The position numbers were made by a program, and so were the translations under genes. From positions 6,563 through 70,562 of the IMG/VR virus record IMGVR_UViG_3300002485_000004: a stretch of DNA of 64,000 bases, one strand, 5' to 3'. The notes below the pieces were generated by a model. That model saw nothing but the letters and a program-made list of their open reading frames with translations, did not search any database and was not told the DNA's origin. The stretch comes from a virus. Its lineage: Duplodnaviria > Caudoviricetes. Numbering within the stretch: position 1 is the stretch's first letter; each line of letters begins with the position of its first letter. This document shows positions 8,283 to 64,000 of the stretch, piece after piece.

Positions 8283-8370
8283 ATCCCGGAGACAGCCGGG
8301 CCTGGTTGGTGCTGTGCGCTCCATCCGCGCCCGATCCAAACGGGTCGTCCCGGAGACAGCCGGGCCTGGT
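8283..8370 (-). CRISPR. Mini-array A: 2 repeats, one 40-nt spacer
   Basis: Repeats at 8283-8306 and 8347-8370 read ACCAGGCCCGGCTGTCTCCGGGA(T/C) on the minus strand, matching the array after the TnpB-like gene. Confidence 0.7.
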
Positions 8371-8478
8371 GGTCGTAACTCAGCAACAAAAGACTGAGGC
8401 AGCCCACGGGCCCGGTCGTGGGTTCCGCAAGCTGCCTCGGGCACTACGGGAGGTGTCACCCTCCCGCAGCGCATGGAC

Positions 8479-11055: not shown

Positions 11056-11067
11056 CTACCTCCTTAG

Positions 11068-11425
11068 AGGACCCGTCGGGAGTTGAACCCGAATCCGCAA
11101 AGTTCTGTTCGCTTCCTCTTCACATGCTTGGCTGCTTAACCCTGCAGCGGGTTGTAGCGGCTTGGTAAGTGACCCGCCTCGTAGGACCGCCGAAGTATCT
11201 CGACCGGAGCCCGGCATCCCAGCTCGCTCTCTCGGTCCAGCCCTTGTTGGGTTTACGCCTCGGGGGGTACTAGGACTCCTACCCCGTCAACGGCCGGGTG
11301 GCTTACGCCACGTCGGCAAGATAGTTGTCGTTGGCAACTAGCTGATGCCCACTTTTATTAAGGCTGTGTGAGCCCAGCCTGCATGCAGAAGTGTTCTTTC
11401 CTCCACGTCGAAACCGGTCGGGCCC
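11068..11425 (-). ncRNA. ssrA: tmRNA
   Basis: 5' GGGCCCGACCGGTTTCGAC; 3' GGGTTCAACTCCCGACGGGTCC with G3:U70 pair; tag frame TAGTT-GCC AAC GAC AAC TAT CTT GCC GAC GTG GCG TAA (11303-11335). Confidence 0.92.
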
Positions 11426-17703: not shown

Positions 17704-18378
17704 CTATCCCTTCTCCGCTCTCTGCATCAAGTCCTTGATGACCAAGTTGTCGCCCGCCATGACCTCTTCACGCGTGGCCGGTTCTGACACAGTGTGCGGC
17801 TCACTGAGTCCCTGCGTCGCCGCATAGAAGTTGAGGAGCTGGCTGCTCATGTCGTACTTCTTGGCTGGGACGATTATGTACCCGGACGCCTTGAGCTCTT
17901 CCTCGAGTCGGTCGTAATCGCCGGTGAGGACCCCTGGGTACAAGAGGGCAATCGCCGCGTGCAGCAGTGGGATACCGCTGTGTGAGCTAGTGCCCAGCAC
18001 GACGCAGTCCAGCTGATCGTTGCCATAGTCTCTGTTGGGCATTGACCACGGGAAGGGTCGGTCCGGAAACACGCTGGTGATGTACAAGCGCTCTTGCGGA
18101 TGAATGTTCTTTGGGTTCACCAGGAAGGTGTAGACCAACGTACTCTGCAGCACCGCATCCAGCCCAGGCCCCAACACGCCCTTCAACGGGTGCGTCACCT
18201 GCATCACCCCCAGCAGCCGATACTCAGAGGGGAGCACCGCCCGAACCACGTACGCCTTGTTCTTGTCGGCCTCCGCTGGGTTGATGTCCGGCATCAAACA
18301 CCAGAACTCTCGCGTCCCCGTCAGGTTCCTGAATGCACCAGAGGGCGCAGCTGCGCCCTCCTCTCTACTCTCTTCCAT
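17704..18378 (-). CDS. Hypothetical protein
   Basis: Likely start ATG 18378 after an AAGGGG SD, immediately downstream of the structured RNA. Confidence 0.65.
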   Translation of the reverse strand: MEESREEGAAAPSGAFRNLTGTREFWCLMPDINPAEADKNKAYVVRAVLPSEYRLLGVMQVTHPLKGVLGPGLDAVLQSTLVYTFLVNPKNIHPQERLYITSVFPDRPFPWSMPNRDYGNDQLDCVVLGTSSHSGIPLLHAAIALLYPGVLTGDYDRLEEELKASGYIIVPAKKYDMSSQLLNFYAATQGLSEPHTVSEPATREEVMAGDNLVIKDLMQRAEKG

Positions 18379-18392
18379 GTTTACCCCTTGTT

Positions 18393-18652
18393 GCTGTTGT
18401 CCAGAAAGGAACAATCGAACGAACCGAGCTTCCCTGTCAGACGCCCCGAGGGGCTACCTGGCGCGGCGCTCGCCTGCTGACGCAGGCTCCTTCCGCATAG
18501 AGTCCGGTTCGGCGCAGCGGCGCGCCTACAATGGGGACCCGTCCAGGACTCTTTCAGCTATGGCTTGGGCTGCGCACCCCTTCCCACGTTCGCTGTGGGT
18601 TTCGCCACGCCCGGCACGAGACTCGTTCGACTGCTCCTTTCTGGACAACAAC
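18393..18652 (-). ncRNA. Candidate ~260-nt structured non-coding RNA closed by a 30-bp stem
   Basis: Arms 18393-18422 and 18623-18652 pair over 30 nt; all three non-Watson-Crick positions are G-U on the minus strand. Multiple internal helices; fills the whole intergenic gap. Confidence 0.75.
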
Positions 18653-18654
18653 GG

Positions 18655-19047
18655 CTACGTTGTACCCCGCCCATGCTTGGCAAGGCAACCTTTTATTGCG
18701 ACCATCAGCTCTTCCGTGGCTGAGCCCTTGCGCTTCAGCAGCTCAGACATCAGCAGGCTCACGATCTTCTTGTCGTCGCCCTTGAACTCCTTCACCAAGC
18801 GGCGCCATGTGGCCGACGACCCCGAGAGCTCCCACAGCAAGTACAGCCAGACGGGCACCCAGCTTCCCCTCGGGTAGGCGCTCACGGGCACCATCCAGTC
18901 GTCCAAGTGCCGGCGCATCTCGTGCTCTGGATGCAGGTGGTAGTACCCGCGCTTGGGGAAGTAGTTTTCGGCTAAAGCATCCGTCTCTACGATGCGGCCC
19001 GCTCGGTGCAAGTCCGGCCGAAACACGTTGTACTTGGCCATGGCCAC
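18655..19047 (-). CDS. Hypothetical protein
   Basis: 130-aa ORF directly after the minus-strand promoter motif. Confidence 0.6.
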   Translation of the reverse strand: MAMAKYNVFRPDLHRAGRIVETDALAENYFPKRGYYHLHPEHEMRRHLDDWMVPVSAYPRGSWVPVWLYLLWELSGSSATWRRLVKEFKGDDKKIVSLLMSELLKRKGSATEELMVAIKGCLAKHGRGTT

Positions 19048-19095: not shown

Positions 19096-19896
19096 CTAGT
19101 AAGCCACCGCAGTAACCCCGTGATGCGCTCGACAGCTGGTGTACGTTCCTAGGGCGACCGGGCCTTCAGGGTCCAGCAGTGGATACAGCACCGGGTGCTT
19201 CAACACGTCGTCGAACAGCATCACCTCCCCATCCACGACGAGCTCGTTGTGGATGAACCTCACGCCGTGGGCGTAGTCAGCGTACTCCACGCCGTGGGCG
19301 TTGACGTTGTTGCCCTGAATGGGCTTCCCCTTGGCGTTGAACCATCCGTAGAAGCTGAGCCACTCCCCGCAGGTGTTGTTCATCCGCTTCGACACGCACA
19401 CGTTCTTCAGGTGGCCCTCGTTCAGAGCGCCAGGAACGAAGCCAGAGGCGCTGCGTATCTTCTGCGTCTGCTTCCCCCACCGGGCCGTGTCCGTCATCGT
19501 ACTGTCGTACGGTGGCCCCCACGGTTGCGCCACCTGTCTGGTAGACGCCGTGTAGATGAAGTCGACCAGCTTGGGCGTAGGAAGGTGGGCGTTGAAGTGC
19601 TGAGCTAGCCGCTCCGCTGTAAGCGCGCCCATGGGGACGAACACCCAGTCGGCGTCGGTGCCCAGGCAGAAGAAGTCTGGCAGGCAGCAAATCTCTAGCT
19701 CGTGGTCATCCACGGCGAGGTTGACCACCATCCACCGGCACAAGAAGTCGGGGATGCACCCCATCATCGCCCAGTGGAATATAGCCTCGGACCGCTCAGC
19801 CCCCAGCTTGGGGGGCATGTGCTTGAGTATCTCAGTGGCCGGGGTCCCTGGGTTCTTTGGTAGGTCTAGGTGATGTTGCATCAACTTGTGCTCCAT
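19096..19896 (-). CDS. Conserved hypothetical protein (LPTPKLVD...FYGWF...PIQ...H..EYADYAHGVRF type)
   Basis: Motifs I recall from uncharacterised bacterial proteins; function not assigned. Confidence 0.65.
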   Translation of the reverse strand: MEHKLMQHHLDLPKNPGTPATEILKHMPPKLGAERSEAIFHWAMMGCIPDFLCRWMVVNLAVDDHELEICCLPDFFCLGTDADWVFVPMGALTAERLAQHFNAHLPTPKLVDFIYTASTRQVAQPWGPPYDSTMTDTARWGKQTQKIRSASGFVPGALNEGHLKNVCVSKRMNNTCGEWLSFYGWFNAKGKPIQGNNVNAHGVEYADYAHGVRFIHNELVVDGEVMLFDDVLKHPVLYPLLDPEGPVALGTYTSCRAHHGVTAVAY

Positions 19897-32512: not shown

Positions 32513-33859
32513 ATGCCAAGACATATCAAGCATCACGACGGAAGAGAGATTCGTGGGCTGCGCGTGAAGTGCTACCCAACGCCCGAACAAGCGCTAGCGT
32601 TGCTCGACTTGCAGAGAAGACTTCGTCGGCTGTGGAACTGGTTAGTTGCGAGGTCTTCAGACACTAGAGCGGCTCGCGAAGCCTGGGCCTCTCGCAATGG
32701 AGCAGGAACTCGACCTGCGAGACCTGAGAACGACGCTGGAGAGCAGGCATGGGCCACCTACAAGACGGTGATGAGCGAGTGGCGAGCGCGTGTTCGATCT
32801 GTGCTGGAACTGCACAAAAAGGATCCCGGGCTCGCGTATCGAAACGTGCGTGACTACATCGCTCAGTTCGGCGTTGATCACGACTACCAGCTCTACCCGC
32901 ACTTGTTCGACGATGATCAGCCCCCGCTTGCACACCCGCAGCAGGCGCTCTTCAAAGATTACGAGGCGGCCATGCGGGCAACCGCTCGGGGCCAGCGACC
33001 GCCCAGGAGGCGCAAGCGCGACGAGGACATGCCGCTGCGGGTGGGGTCTGGCACACACTTTCGTCAGGTCGCAGATGGCGGTCGCCGAGTGATTGGGCAT
33101 CATCCTAAAGGACCGCAGATGAGCGGGAGAATCAACTGTCAGGTGAGCCTACCTGGCATCGGCTGGATCAACGCCACCATTTCTTCAGAGCAGCCACTGG
33201 AGGCTCAAGAGTACTGGGTGGAGGGGGTGGCCCTACGACGTGAAGCCGACGGGTGGTACGCGGCAATACGCCAGCACGTCGTGCCGACTGTGGCGCCGAA
33301 GGGCGTTGGTGCGTGCGGCATCGACGTCGGACTCGTCTATTTATTCGCGGCGGTAGGCGACGATGGACAGCAGATTGTGGCTACGAATCCACGTCTTGGT
33401 TCACGCCGTGGGCACCTGCGAACACCAGGCGGGTACGTCGAGCTCATTGCTGAACGACAAGCGGCAAAACTTCCAACGACGATCCTTCAATGTCGGTCGG
33501 CGCGCAACGTGCGGCAGGTGGTACGAGAGCAACTGTTTCCATTCACAGATCGCTACGAGTTCATTGCAGTCGAGAACCTACCGGCCAACATCGGGTTCCT
33601 CGAGACGCCCCACTTGTCGTTCATGCGCACTGTTCGATCAATGTTGGTCCAGCGCTACGGGTGCGAGAGGGTCATCGACGTCGATCCAACGAACACCTCT
33701 CGCATATGTTCCAAGTGCGGGCATCTGTGCAATAGATCTTGGTCTGACCTGCTAGGGCGCGTGGGTCTATGCCCAGCTTGCGGCCACTCAGAGATGTCAG
33801 ATCTGAACGCCGCTCGCAATGTGCTCCACAGACTATCGAAACTATTGGCCGCCGAATGA
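32513..33859 (+). CDS. tnpB: TnpB/Cas12f-like RNA-guided RuvC nuclease (candidate miniature type V effector)
   Basis: N-terminal RVKCYPTPEQ...LRRLWNW; RuvC-I CGIDVG; RuvC-II IAVENL; zinc ribbon CSKC...CPAC; RuvC-III SDLNAARNV. GGAGG SD only 9 nt after the upstream stop. Confidence 0.9.
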   Translation: MPRHIKHHDGREIRGLRVKCYPTPEQALALLDLQRRLRRLWNWLVARSSDTRAAREAWASRNGAGTRPARPENDAGEQAWATYKTVMSEWRARVRSVLELHKKDPGLAYRNVRDYIAQFGVDHDYQLYPHLFDDDQPPLAHPQQALFKDYEAAMRATARGQRPPRRRKRDEDMPLRVGSGTHFRQVADGGRRVIGHHPKGPQMSGRINCQVSLPGIGWINATISSEQPLEAQEYWVEGVALRREADGWYAAIRQHVVPTVAPKGVGACGIDVGLVYLFAAVGDDGQQIVATNPRLGSRRGHLRTPGGYVELIAERQAAKLPTTILQCRSARNVRQVVREQLFPFTDRYEFIAVENLPANIGFLETPHLSFMRTVRSMLVQRYGCERVIDVDPTNTSRICSKCGHLCNRSWSDLLGRVGLCPACGHSEMSDLNAARNVLHRLSKLLAAE

Positions 33860-33876
33860 CGACCCTCGCCGCACCA

Positions 33877-34238
33877 ACCAGACCCGGCTGTCTCCGGGAC
33901 GAGAAGCGGACCAGGCGAGGACCGACCTTGAGCACCCTCACCGCGCACACTAGGCTCGGCTAACTCCGGGACAGGTCGACCTCGCCCTTGGCGATGTCCT
34001 TACAAGATGCACCAGGCCAGGCTGACTCCTGGACTACCCGCTCGCTGAGGCAGACATTCGCACCACACCTACCAGGCCCGGCTGACTCCGGGACGCTCTT
34101 GGGATGAGCGAACGCGCTCCCATCGCCTCTCCTCGCCGCACCAACCAGGCCCGGCTGACTCCGGGACGCAGGTCGAGGCACGCGCTGCACTCCCGGTGAA
34201 CGCGCTCCAAACGCACCGGTCCAGGCTTCATACATGGC
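33877..34238 (+). CRISPR. Array B: five 24-nt repeats plus one degenerate terminal repeat
   Basis: Repeats at 33877-33900, 33949-33972, 34011-34034, 34071-34094, 34144-34167 and a degenerate copy at ~34215-34238. Unique spacers of 48, 38, 36, 49 and 47 nt. Confidence 0.85.
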
Positions 34239-36366: not shown

Positions 36367-36675
36367 CATGCCTATCCGGTTAGCTCCCATAGGAGACTGA
36401 GATGCGTGAAGAAGGAATGAGTAGCATCGACCGGAAGTCGCCGGAGAACATTCAGAACGCGGTAGCGATGGGCGGCCGCATCCGGCGCGAAACACTCGAT
36501 CGATTGTTGGAGCTTCTGCCGCAGAAAACCTCGTACCTGTTTTGGATCGCCCTGGAGGTGCGCACGTCCACGATGCTGAAGACCATCGACAACGAAGAGG
36601 ACGCGCTCGAGACGATCCGTCGGCTCGAGTCCGCGCCCGACCTCCCTGCGGACGGGAGCTAACCGGATAGGTACA
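36367..36675. mobile_element. MITE-like 309-bp insertion with 18-bp inverted repeats and 8-bp direct repeats
   Basis: CCTATCCGGTTAGCTCCC (36371-36388) is the perfect reverse complement of 36654-36671. GTATGAAC lies at 36359-36366 and 36676-36683, each 4 nt from an inverted repeat. Confidence 0.65.
36402..36662 (+). CDS. Small passenger ORF inside the MITE-like element
   Basis: AGGAGA SD; the stop codon lies within the right inverted repeat. Confidence 0.55.
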   Translation: MREEGMSSIDRKSPENIQNAVAMGGRIRRETLDRLLELLPQKTSYLFWIALEVRTSTMLKTIDNEEDALETIRRLESAPDLPADGS

Positions 36676-56031: not shown

Positions 56032-56619
56032 ATGACCAACAACATCAAGACTACGCTAGTTCTGATCGTGTCCATCATCCTCACGGCCTGTGGCGGGGCA
56101 GTGAGCGCTGACTATGAAGAGACGTATCCCGCTGCCGAGGGCGGTGCCGCTGGTACTGTCACGGTCGGTGAGGCTGGTACTGCTGGCTCACCCGAAGTGG
56201 TGGAGCCTTCGATCTGCGCAGAGGGCGAGAACTACATGCCCCTCATGTGCCGAGGCGAGGAAGGGGAACACCCAGACTGCCATGGCAGAACGGGATGGTT
56301 CGAGCGGTGCTGCACTCTCGGAGTGGGCTGCGTCGAGCTCCCCAGCCCCAGCGAGGGCGGTGCCGGCGGCGCGGACAGCGTCGCCAGCGTCGAGCGCTCC
56401 GTGTGCGTGGTGGCCTGCTTGACCACCATCCGCACCCGGGACGCCACGGGCGCCGTGGCAGCCCCCACGTCCACCTTCGCACTCACGTCGGGCGCCTGCA
56501 ATGGGCCCGATGTGGACGTGTGCGAAGCAAACGCGGATGCACTGGTTCACACCCAGTGCGCTCCAGGCGAGGAGCCTCCGGAGGAAACTCCGGGTTGCTT
56601 GCTCGGGCCACTCTCGTGA
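56032..56619 (+). CDS. Cys-rich lipoprotein
   Basis: Signal peptide with lipobox IILTAC-GG; 12 further Cys residues. Confidence 0.75.
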   Translation: MTNNIKTTLVLIVSIILTACGGAVSADYEETYPAAEGGAAGTVTVGEAGTAGSPEVVEPSICAEGENYMPLMCRGEEGEHPDCHGRTGWFERCCTLGVGCVELPSPSEGGAGGADSVASVERSVCVVACLTTIRTRDATGAVAAPTSTFALTSGACNGPDVDVCEANADALVHTQCAPGEEPPEETPGCLLGPLS

Positions 56620-56674
56620 TGACGGCGCAACCCCTCGGGGTTGTGCAAGGCCCCTCGGGGCCTCATCACTAGCC
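56618..56674 (+). terminator. Three-way-junction + CTAGCC element
   Basis: GATG/CATC stem; CGCAACCC-CTCG-GGGTTGTG, CA linker, AGGCCC-CTCG-GGGCCT. Confidence 0.6.
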
Positions 56675-56899
56675 CTTGTTTGGCTGACATAGCGCGTGCC
56701 CTTTAGCGAAGATGCTGAGCTGTCGCTTAGCTACGCTTCTGGAGCATGCACGCCACTTAGTGGTCGCTCTACACCTACTGCAGGTGAAGGTGGCCATGTA
56801 GCGCTCGTACTCACGAACGAGCTTCATGGTGCACCAAGGGAAGGGGAGGTCTGCGCTGCTGGTCACTGACAAAGTGTAGCGCACGCAGGCATAACAACT

Positions 56900-57489
56900 A
56901 TGAGGGACTACAACCAAGGAGACTTCAACATGGGCATGGAAGAGACGATCAGTTCATTCGCCAATAAGGAAGATGCGTTGATGTGGTTGGTGCGCTCACT
57001 ACCAAGAGACAAAACCGTCACCATCGGGCCTTTGATTAACGCTGCCGAGTGGGTGGCGCTGAACTCAAAAGATGGGTTGCACACCAGCATAGCGTTCATC
57101 AACAAGCGCAATGAGATCGTCGTCGTACTGATGAACGACGCGGGTGAGACCGACGCCCTGGGGAAGTTCTCATGAGCGACAGCATTCACGCGGGGTCCAC
57201 GGTCAACATCGACCGCAGGTTGAAGGGCGAAGCCACCATTGTCCTAGAGGGGCTGACGAAGGTGGAGCAGCAGTACGTGAAGGACACGCTCGGTGCGTTG
57301 CTCGACGATGCGCTCATGGACTTCGTGCGCCGGCGCAGCCCCTCGAGGGAGTACACGAAGCACTATGTGAAAGTGGGCGTATTGCCGCCGGACTTGATCA
57401 ACGAGTACGTGAAGAAGGTGGACCACGACAAGGCACTAGCCGCTTCGGTGGGCGACGTGCTGTTGCACGTCGCCATCTCCTTCAAGTGA
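56900..57489 (+). other. Two hypothetical ORFs (56900-57175, 57172-57489)
   Basis: GGCATAAC motif at 56888. Confidence 0.6.
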
Positions 57490-57490
57490 T

Positions 57491-57563
57491 GACGGGGCCT
57501 TCGGGCCCAGGCCCGTAAGGGGCCCTTCACTAGCCACAAATATCCTAGCCGATTAGGCATAAA
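57491..57563 (+). promoter_or_regulatory. Three-way junction + CTAGCC + promoter GCCACA-N17-GGCATAAA
   Basis: GGCC-TTCG-GGCC, CA linker, GGCCC-GTAAG-GGGCC; -10 motif at 57556. Confidence 0.6.
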
Positions 57564-57580: not shown

Positions 57581-58051
57581 ATGAAGACGAGGCAATGGGC
57601 ACACCCATTCGATAGGTCTCTGAAGGATGAGGAGGTACAGGCGCTGGGGAAGGACCCCAATGCAACGTACGGGGTACAACCGTCGTCCGACGCCATCGGC
57701 GGGTACTTCGGCATGGGGTGGGTGTCGTACTTCAAAGATCACGAGACGGGCGAGGTGTACGGGGTGCACTGCTCAGACGGCGTATACGGTGGTAAAGGGT
57801 CCCACCACCCCAAGCACGAGGTGTGGATGCACACCGCCTTCCATACCATCTCCGAGGTGATGTGCGAGAAGGGAGGCAGCGATCTCTCCATGCTGGATTG
57901 GAACCTGATGTCCAACTACACGAAGATGTGGATGGACGTAGGTAAGGCGGCCGGCGAAGCCCCTGGCGTGGTGGGCACATGCAAAGGCATGGAGGTCGTG
58001 GTCAAGGAGGGCATTCCACCGGTGGTTGGTGAGCCACCAAGCATAGCGTGA
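57581..58051 (+). CDS. Hypothetical protein (single-gene cassette)
   Basis: Promoter and GGAGG SD. Confidence 0.65.
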   Translation: MKTRQWAHPFDRSLKDEEVQALGKDPNATYGVQPSSDAIGGYFGMGWVSYFKDHETGEVYGVHCSDGVYGGKGSHHPKHEVWMHTAFHTISEVMCEKGGSDLSMLDWNLMSNYTKMWMDVGKAAGEAPGVVGTCKGMEVVVKEGIPPVVGEPPSIA

Positions 58052-58053
58052 TT

Positions 58054-58128
58054 ACGGCGCCCTGAAGGGCGCAGGGGGCTTCAAGCCCCCGTCACTATCC
58101 ACAAAAACGTGGTGGAATAGGGCATAAA
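58054..58128 (+). promoter_or_regulatory. Three-way junction + CTATCC + promoter TCCACA-N17-GGCATAAA
   Basis: CGCCC-TGAA-GGGCG, CA linker, GGGGC-TTCAA-GCCCC inside an ACG/CGT stem. Confidence 0.6.
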
Positions 58129-58189: not shown

Positions 58190-58573
58190 ATGTACATCCG
58201 TAAGATCGAGAACCGGTTCGAGACCAGCACCAACGGCAAGGACTACACCTCGTTGAACGAGCCGCTGCCGGCGAAGATCATGCGCTGCTTCGAGAAGACT
58301 GATGCGCGGACAGTCTACTGCGCGTCCAGCTTCTTGGGAGTGAACGAGGCCCACATGATCACCCCCCTCGATGGGAAAACGTCAGCATGGGCCACCGAAG
58401 CGCTTCCGGCGCGCACCCCCACCCGGGTGCGGTACGTGCAGGTTCGCAGCCACGCGGACACCGAGGCCGAGGTGTGGTGGCTGTGGGCCGGGTTCACCTT
58501 CGTGTGGATCTGGGTGCTGCTCATCTACGCGGCAGCGGCCGCTGGCAGCGCCAAGAGCGACACCGCGACGTGA
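58190..58573 (+). CDS. Hypothetical protein with C-terminal TM helix
   Basis: GGAGG SD; WWLWAGFTFVWIWVLLIYAAA. Confidence 0.65.
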   Translation: MYIRKIENRFETSTNGKDYTSLNEPLPAKIMRCFEKTDARTVYCASSFLGVNEAHMITPLDGKTSAWATEALPARTPTRVRYVQVRSHADTEAEVWWLWAGFTFVWIWVLLIYAAAAAGSAKSDTAT

Positions 58574-58575
58574 AC

Positions 58576-58623
58576 AACGACACCCGCAAGGGTGCAGCCC
58601 CTTCGGGGGCCGTTCGCTACCCC
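58576..58623 (+). terminator. Three-way junction + CTACCC element
   Basis: AACG/CGTT stem; CACCC-GCAA-GGGTG, CA linker, GCCCC-TTCG-GGGGC. Confidence 0.65.
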
Positions 58624-60132: not shown

Positions 60133-60324
60133 ATGAGCAACAAGGCAAGAGAAGAAGCTAAGTTGGTGGATGCTGTCTTCGAAGACGGCACATGGATAGC
60201 GCGCGTCAGTCACCGCCAAGTGCGGGAGTACCTGGTGGGGATCGCCTCCACCCGGGAAGAGGCGATCAGAAACGCCTTCGCGCGCGTCACCATGCGCGCG
60301 CGAGGAGCGCAGCAGGGCTGCTGA
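60133..60324 (+). CDS. Small hypothetical protein (single-gene cassette)
   Basis: GGAGG SD; followed by a three-way-junction element. Confidence 0.6.
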   Translation: MSNKAREEAKLVDAVFEDGTWIARVSHRQVREYLVGIASTREEAIRNAFARVTMRARGAQQGC

Positions 60325-60372
60325 ATGGCGCCGCGCAAGCGGTGCGGCCCCACCCGGGGCCTTCAGCTAGCC
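60321..60372 (+). terminator. Three-way junction + CTAGCC element
   Basis: CTGAA/TTCAG stem; CGCCGC-GCAA-GCGGTG and GCCCC-ACCC-GGGGC. Confidence 0.6.
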
Positions 60373-60377
60373 CCACT

Positions 60378-63204: not shown

Positions 63205-63267
63205 TTGTCACCGTAACGCTGAGCGCTGTAAGCCCGACGTTTTGCGCAGGGCCGTCGTGGTGGGCGA

Positions 63268-63441
63268 GTCTCGGAGTCAGCCGAGCCTGGTAAAGATTGA
63301 AAGATTGTGAGCTGGGCGCGGCGCGCGATCGATTCCGAAGTCTGCAGTCCCGGAGACAGCCGGGTCTGGTATGTGCTGTGAAGTGGCGAACAAGAGCGGG
63401 CCGGGGATGTGGTTCAAGTCTCGGAAACAGCCGGGCCTGGT
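63268..63441 (-). CRISPR. Mini-array C: 3 repeats, spacers of 47 and 55 nt
   Basis: Repeats at 63418-63441, 63347-63370 (identical to the repeat at 33877) and 63268-63291; starts 5 nt after the rnhB stop. Confidence 0.75.
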
Positions 63442-63446
63442 AAGTA

Positions 63447-64000
63447 TCAGCAAAACTTGTAGCTGCGGCGATGAATGGGGCACATCCCATGTAGGCGAAT
63501 GCCCTCTGCGTGCTTTGGGGTACCGTAGCCCTTGTTGCTCTCCCAGTCGTACTGAGGATAGCACTTGGCGTACTCCAGCATGTACCCGTCACGAGTGGTC
63601 TTGGCTACTACGCTAGCCGCGCTCACCGCCGGAACAATAACGTCTGCCTTCGGCACCAGCACGGGCTTGATGCTGCTCCACGACGGCAAGTTCATCTTGT
63701 TGCCGTCCATCACCACCACGTAGGTGGCTTCTGGTGGGAGCGTTCCAATCAGGTGCTCTGCCACACTTTGGTTCAAGCGGCTGAGGGACACGGTCACGCT
63801 CTCCTCATCCAAGAGAGCAGCCTCACAGCTAAGAGTAAAGACGGGGATGCCTTGCTCCCGAAGGGTTACAACGGCCTTCTCCCTGCGCAGCTCCGTGAGC
63901 TTCTTGGAGTCGCGTACTCCGTCGCAGCGCCAGCCGCAGGGGGTGATGGAACCCCCCACGACTAGCGGCCCAGCCCAGGCGCCGTACCCTACCTCATCAA
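63447..64000 (-). CDS. rnhB: Ribonuclease HII (5' end outside the window)
   Basis: DEVGYGAWAGPLVV, RDSKKL, MDGN, KAD...VSAASVVAK, NKGYGT...IHRRSY. Confidence 0.92.
   Translation of the reverse strand, partial: DEVGYGAWAGPLVVGGSITPCGWRCDGVRDSKKLTELRREKAVVTLREQGIPVFTLSCEAALLDEESVTVSLSRLNQSVAEHLIGTLPPEATYVVVMDGNKMNLPSWSSIKPVLVPKADVIVPAVSAASVVAKTTRDGYMLEYAKCYPQYDWESNKGYGTPKHAEGIRLHGMCPIHRRSYKFC

Follow-up and report, generated by a model that had tools for sequence, protein, structure and literature searches.

It is rare to find a large structured RNA with clear covariation, and where roles are known they lie in RNA processing, in protein synthesis and localisation, and in gene regulation. The element described here is a member of a previously uncatalogued structured-RNA family of large environmental phages, and several described systems resemble it in part. 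GOLLD, ROOL and the stable RNAs of the phage T4 tRNA region are likewise phage-borne, highly structured, supported by covariation and orphan in function. Compared with GOLLD and ROOL, the RNA reported here is smaller, has a very long closing helix, keeps a fixed place between two small genes and has no match in Rfam 15.

Bacterial RNase III cuts helices from about 20 bp upwards; rRNA precursors and the early mRNAs of phage T7 are examples. Like the precursor stems of 16S and 23S rRNA and the T7 early-mRNA sites, the RNA has a long near-perfect helix placed around a folded RNA or between cistrons, and at 21-33 bp this helix falls within what RNase III cuts. The T7 sites, however, are simple hairpins of ~60 nt with nothing conserved inside, whereas here a conserved, covarying and multi-branched core of 130-200 nt is enclosed and cleavage is a prediction. 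The c4 RNA of P1 and P7, the CI RNA of P4, put of HK022 and nut of lambda also lie inside or at the head of an operon beside a small regulatory gene, and these RNAs are processed from mRNA or act on the transcribing polymerase. They are 60-80 nt long with one or two hairpins; the present RNA is larger, and the likeness is one of genomic layout. The tracrRNAs of Cas12f (Cas14) are similar in length (~150-250 nt), have a multi-helix fold and come from genomes with a miniature type V-like nuclease and arrays, as is the case here. As a kind, a folded RNA between the arms of a long processing helix in a phage operon is familiar; the fold, size and gene context of this one are new.

Results

A long closing helix between two phage genes

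The RNA is encoded on the minus strand at 18393-18652 of a 64-kb stretch of phage DNA (the window), which is part of a 70.5-kb record that is ~37% complete and has 59% G+C. The same phage is also present as a 191-kb contig. A sequence-only reading of the window had placed a structured RNA in the gap that runs from a stop codon (18655) to the next Shine-Dalgarno sequence. The ORF map of the minus strand agrees with this position, the element being flanked on one side by the stop codon of the ORF at 18655-19047 and on the other by the next gene's Shine-Dalgarno sequence and ATG (18378). Its arms, 18395-18422 and 18623-18650, form the longest inverted repeat in the window. As minus-strand RNA, 18393-18425 pairs with 18620-18652 in 33 contiguous pairs, five being G-U or U-G, and all five wobble pairs turn into A-C mismatches if the plus strand is read. 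The reading had described a 30-bp closing stem with every imperfect position G-U on the minus strand, which we confirmed with a length of 30-33 bp and five wobbles.

The whole 276 nt between the two ORFs folds with a z score of -5.4 relative to shuffled sequences. Without the closing helix, the inner 198 nt gave z = +0.4, and the complement of these 198 nt was likewise no better than shuffles. The thermodynamic signal is therefore that of the closing helix alone. Judged on the single sequence, the inner hairpins drawn in the earlier reading are what any sequence of 66% G+C gives, and as the interior had no folding signal of its own, proof of inner structure had to be sought in relatives.

Relatives of the RNA

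Sequence comparison with blastn of the region against GenBank phages gave no match, and we found no description of this RNA in a literature search. Contigs nearly identical to the window (L004/L009, L006 and L007) differ at only two positions, and all four are in the same orientation. With a profile of the relatives of the 130-aa protein encoded just upstream, we reached L011, a metagenome contig of 3.3 kb that encodes a relative 50% identical to that protein followed by a clearly homologous RNA, cut by the contig end. The RNA of the window and that of L011 share 78% nucleotide identity; for the two upstream genes the values are only 59% and 66%. In L011 (3015-3035), the small upstream protein stops at a TGA four codons before the stop of its relatives, and the 12 nt past the TGA are conserved up to the usual TAG; they may be part of the RNA or may be read through.

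Contigs encoding relatives of a 261-aa protein, whose gene lies two genes upstream in the window (19096-19881), show a structured RNA at the same place. The RNAs fall into two types. The A-type, long at ~250 nt, is found in the window, L011 and L012, and the B-type, shorter at 190-200 nt, in L013, L014, L016 and L017. L023 has a weaker match (24.5 bits with the B-type model), and two further relatives have a gap of 267-279 nt at the right place, as judged from gene maps only. In all, the family is known from about eight distinct sequences, all from rare large phages. The Shine-Dalgarno sequence or ribosome-binding site of the next gene begins 0-6 nt past the closing helix in all seven members. 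In L014 and L017, the RNA is preceded by a divergent intergenic region, making it the 5' leader of an operon.

The neighbourhood conserved in L012-L017 and L022, which includes the gene at 19096-19881 of the window, consists of the 261-aa protein, a small protein with a W-V-P-V-W motif, the RNA and a protein of 173-182 aa. It is often near genes for a DNA ligase, an NT5C nucleotidase and a YAcAr-domain protein in large uncultured phages.

Covariation and strand

We aligned the A-type RNAs of the window, L004, L011 and L012, and separately the B-type RNAs of L013, L014, L016 and L017. Across the four B-type sequences, 94.5% of the cells are paired and 31 of 65 pairs have changes on both sides, against 11.6 +/- 2.6 in column shuffles and 2-6 when the partners were slid by 1-3 columns. 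For the A-type, 95.5% of the cells are paired and both sides changed in 17 of 82 pairs (7.9 +/- 1.8 in column shuffles; 1-5 with partners slid by 1-3 columns). The closing helix of the B-type alone covaries at 14 of its 29 pairs, suggesting that the length of the helix is selected and not its sequence.

The direction in which the element is read is also visible in the relatives. With the B-type covariance model, scores are 174-199 bits when the gene strand is read and 33-47 bits for its complement, and the gene strand folds better than its reverse complement in seven of seven members. The RNA is therefore read in the direction of the flanking genes and is no DNA-level repeat. Folding and covariation in related phages, the check named in the earlier reading, thus back the fold in both subtypes. 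We consider it very probable that the element is a real, conserved structured RNA that is independent of CRISPR.

The two types were not linked to each other by the B-type covariance model R1 or by nhmmer profiles. Since these models do not connect them, we call them positional counterparts and probable homologues, on the basis of the flanking gene families, the layout and the short motifs that they have in common. The upstream protein families of the A-type and the B-type match each other with an hhalign probability of 95% (E = 2e-8).

Parts of the RNA

Both types share a layout: a closing helix of 21-33 bp, a bulge of 7-8 nt on the 5' side that usually contains UCUC, a short second helix of 7 bp (A-type) or 4 bp (B-type), a helix around two hairpins, a domain with a short hairpin closed by a UUCG-like loop, and a last hairpin. 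The core is multi-branched with 4-8 hairpins. A domain of ~90 nt (18457-18547) is peculiar to the A-type, and an additional first hairpin to the B-type.

In the window, where all parts are on the minus strand, the closing helix P1 has its 5' strand at 18623-18652 and its 3' strand at 18393-18422, ending 3 nt ahead of the next gene's Shine-Dalgarno sequence. It is 30 bp long in the consensus and 33 bp in the single-sequence fold (to 18620), and is 99% paired across the A-type; in L011, both arms carry matched insertions. Between P1 and the second helix, P1b, lies a 7-nt bulge on the 5' side (18616-18622) that is invariant between the window and L011; the B-type carries a similar UCUC-containing bulge. 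P1b is formed by 18609-18615, the core of what had been read as an anti-repeat, and its partner 18423-18429, with two of the seven pairs compensatory in L011 and L012.

The P2 domain (18560-18608) is a 5-bp helix around two hairpins; of its model helices (3-5), 3 and 4 show compensatory changes. The sequence of its second hairpin is nearly identical in the A-type and the B-type. That a 5-bp helix (18604-18608 with 18560-18564) encloses two hairpins had been seen in the window sequence, and the covariation in relatives supports it. The P4 domain (18457-18547), specific to the A-type, has a 5-bp outer helix and two arms of variable sequence (helices 7-11), with four compensatory pairs each in helices 8 and 9. 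For this outer helix, the second in the earlier reading, a shift by one register gives the better pairing, 18543-18547 with 18457-18461, and the inner helix there has four compensatory pairs. A hairpin proposed at about 18470-18490 is also borne out by the relatives, as a hairpin of variable length. Last, 18443-18454 forms a 4-bp hairpin with the loop CUCG in the window and UUCG in L011.

Compact elements recur after stop codons elsewhere in the window (56616-56675, 57485-57536, 58048-58101, 58570-58623, 60320-60373 and others). In each, a short outer helix surrounds two G+C-rich hairpins, and two motifs, first one resembling UAGCC and then one resembling GGCAUAAAA, lie between it and the following gene. 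By eye, P2 and P4 resemble these three-way junctions; a crude descriptor gave 32 matches, with 28-46 in shuffled sequence, and a MAFFT alignment of the recurring elements was too poor to build a model.

Flanking genes

The upstream gene (18655-19047, minus strand) codes for the 130-aa protein, which belongs to a rare family marked by a conserved W-V-P-V-W motif, and directly adjoins the RNA in the window, L011, L012, L013 and L016. Family members are 120-140 aa long across phages, and a set of 1.84 billion proteins contains 11 representative clusters of them. The gene next to the RNA in L014 and L017 is a divergent one that has only a short motif in common with the family. The 130-aa protein has no recognisable RNA-binding fold or family, and the neighbours of the RNA have no Pfam match. 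Its structure model (pLDDT 76.7) gave no Foldseek match in the PDB at E <= 0.001. The best score in a wide structure search with VIA was a Z of 4.2, in the range of noise, and we give no weight to the top row, a viral dsRNA-binding protein. The 261-aa protein further upstream has 13 relatives, and neither a PDB profile search nor Pfam returned a match for it.

Downstream, the gene at 17704-18378 (minus strand) encodes a 224-aa protein, with 3 nt between the RNA and the start of the gene's ribosome-binding site. We found no relatives of the 224-aa protein, and it is unrelated to the family of ~175 aa (173-182 aa) encoded behind the RNA in other phages. That family is common to the A-type locus L012 and all four B-type loci. 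Its members carry a membrane anchor at the N terminus and a Pro-rich linker.

No terminator or promoter consensus was found between the RNA and its neighbours, indicating that the RNA is part of a polycistronic transcript. A candidate promoter motif upstream of the RNA in L014 and L017 was no commoner in the window than in most shuffles of it.

Relation to the CRISPR system of the phage

The window also encodes a 448-aa TnpB/Cas12f-like protein with a Cas12f1-like TNB domain (32513-33859). A five-repeat array starts 5 nt after the gene (gene and array together, 32513-34168), and two small arrays with the same repeat are on the other strand at 8284-8380 and 63266-63451, 24 and 29 kb away.

Effectors of the Cas12f type generally need long tracrRNAs, and the sequence-only reading had suggested that the RNA serves the protein encoded at 32513 as a trans-encoded tracrRNA, scaffold or sponge, pairing with the CRISPR repeat in two blocks through 18605-18622. 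The two blocks do exist arithmetically, as six pairs and 10 of 11 nt. The complementarity is no better than chance: when every 30-nt stretch was scored by RNAduplex energy, the site ranked 27th among the non-array sites of the window, so that 26 others pair with the repeat at least as well. The segment is also not free to pair, as it forms the 5' strand of P1b and of P2. Where it differs in L011 and L012, the internal partner 18423-18429 differs to match, and with this compensation inside the RNA, internal pairing accounts for the sequence of the segment. In these respects the RNA is unlike a Cas12f tracrRNA, and it is also 14 kb from the nuclease gene and array. The repeat itself bears a 5-bp hairpin beside the spacer, as in type V systems that are independent of a tracrRNA.

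Among the partial records of related phages, the RNA and the nuclease may also occur apart. G001, with a clear B-type RNA, has no match to the TNB domain (PF07282) in a record that is ~55% complete. The same holds for G002, whose record is also ~55% complete and whose RNA match is weak (24.5 bits at L023, failing in a whole-record search). In the related phage fragment L018, a Cas12f1-like TNB domain is present in a 507-aa protein (462-1985), and the 10 kb of sequence examined showed no copy of the RNA. We conclude that the RNA is not tied to the CRISPR system and rate a role as tracrRNA, scaffold or sponge for the 448-aa nuclease and its arrays as extremely improbable. For the TnpB-sized CRISPR effector of this phage, use of the RNA as a tracrRNA should not be assumed.

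Comparison with other classes of element

An Rfam search had also been named as a check. With Rfam 15, the window locus gave nothing in gathering mode or at E up to 10, and the five related loci from L012 to L017 gave nothing at E up to 5; the element thus has no match to a known family, related or unrelated. Given covariation in two subtypes, conserved synteny and the lack of an Rfam family for any member, the fallback offered in the sequence-only reading, a new class of noncoding RNA, is the part of its interpretation that is supported.

Inverted repeats of 28-30 bp around 200 bp could also belong to an element that functions as DNA, such as a MITE with 30-bp terminal inverted repeats, an invertible switch, a cruciform or an origin site, and perfect 18-bp inverted repeats do exist elsewhere in the window (36371-36671). 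The covariation of arms and inner helices and the wobble pairs, valid on one strand only, argue against this, as does its occupying one position in phages so diverged that their flanking proteins share only 50-64% identity. The genome contains a single copy of it, the four near-identical contigs show one orientation, and no recombinase gene is adjacent. Pattern scans for the arm sequence returned only the same phage among viral contigs, nothing among metagenome contigs and one chance match, inside a Hyphomicrobiaceae gene, among genome contigs; a further sequence-pattern scan of viral contigs again found the same phage only. We therefore regard a DNA-level element as very improbable. A MITE was rejected on the single copy, the absence of other copies in the three collections, the orthologous position and the lack of a clear target-site duplication flanking the element, and an invertible switch on the lack of an inverted variant among the near-identical contigs. 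The 18-bp repeats at 36371-36671 enclose an ORF of ~86 aa, the left arm lying before its ribosome-binding site and the right arm overlapping its stop codon.

Several RNA classes were considered as well. A retron msr-msd RNA was rejected, with no RVT_1 domain in the 70-kb record and no Pfam match for the neighbours. So was a riboswitch: its P1 would be far too long to switch (26-33 bp), there is no terminator, and the ribosome-binding site is outside the fold. As for Y RNA (YrlA), the record, which covers only 37% of the genome, has no Ro-like or TROVE match and the element no Rfam match. The possibility of a small ORF was considered and dropped.

Discussion

With 33 continuous base pairs in the window and 21-28 in each of the other members, the helix reaches the length of about 20 bp or more expected of an RNase III substrate. 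The enzyme must be assumed to be that of the host, as the 70-kb record encodes neither an RNase III nor a dsRNA-binding domain. In the mechanism that we propose, the long near-perfect helix is a putative substrate of host RNase III, and a cut there would split the two cistrons apart and free the folded core of ~200 nt, with a short stem, as a discrete stable RNA. The core could then be a protein-binding scaffold, and its likeliest partner would be the small protein encoded beside the RNA. A role for the core itself is favoured because it is conserved beyond the needs of a cleavage site and is kept where the downstream gene has been replaced. We put forward excision by RNase III together with a trans-acting RNP tentatively, as a reading with appreciable but less than even support. 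The best overall explanation, a new RNA family excised by RNase III with a core that binds the neighbouring protein, stands in our judgement at about an even chance.

The main rival to a trans-acting RNP is an intercistronic or leader element that acts in cis, the RNA staying in the mRNA and controlling the gene behind it or the whole operon. It might do so by setting mRNA ends or stability, as the site of a translational regulator near the ribosome-binding site, or by processive antitermination of the put or nut type. The 0-6 nt spacing to the next Shine-Dalgarno sequence, seen in seven of seven members, fits such a role equally well, although tight spacing is general in phage genomes. That the RNA is an operon 5' leader in L014 and L017, and that no terminator separates it from the gene, also agree with cis action, and a regulator gene beside its RNA site recalls lambda N and nutL. 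The gene behind the RNA is not conserved, however, being that of the 224-aa protein in the window and of the 173-182-aa family elsewhere, and yet the RNA is kept. Nor is the ribosome-binding site sequestered by structure, and a closing helix of 26-33 bp cannot switch as the P1 helices of riboswitches do. We give control in cis nearly as much support as the trans-acting RNP.

Under the trans-acting reading, the RNA, its core excised by RNase III, and the W-V-P-V-W protein might together be a new phage RNP directed in trans at the expression of host or phage genes or at a host defence, which we consider unlikely. If true, this RNP would be a new functional class of phage RNA and more than a processing site.

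Absent from Rfam, the RNA is better conserved than the genes of the surrounding proteins, and it forms a fixed three-part module with a small protein before it and a small membrane protein after it. As an object it is defined and clonable, at 190-260 nt, and it comes with a testable prediction of excision by RNase III and a candidate protein partner. The module is found in poorly known phages of ~100-200 kb that carry a tmRNA and tRNAs and, in the present case, also a miniature CRISPR system. In the window these are a tmRNA and four tRNAs, the tmRNA (11067-11425) encoding the unusual tag peptide ANDNYLADVA.
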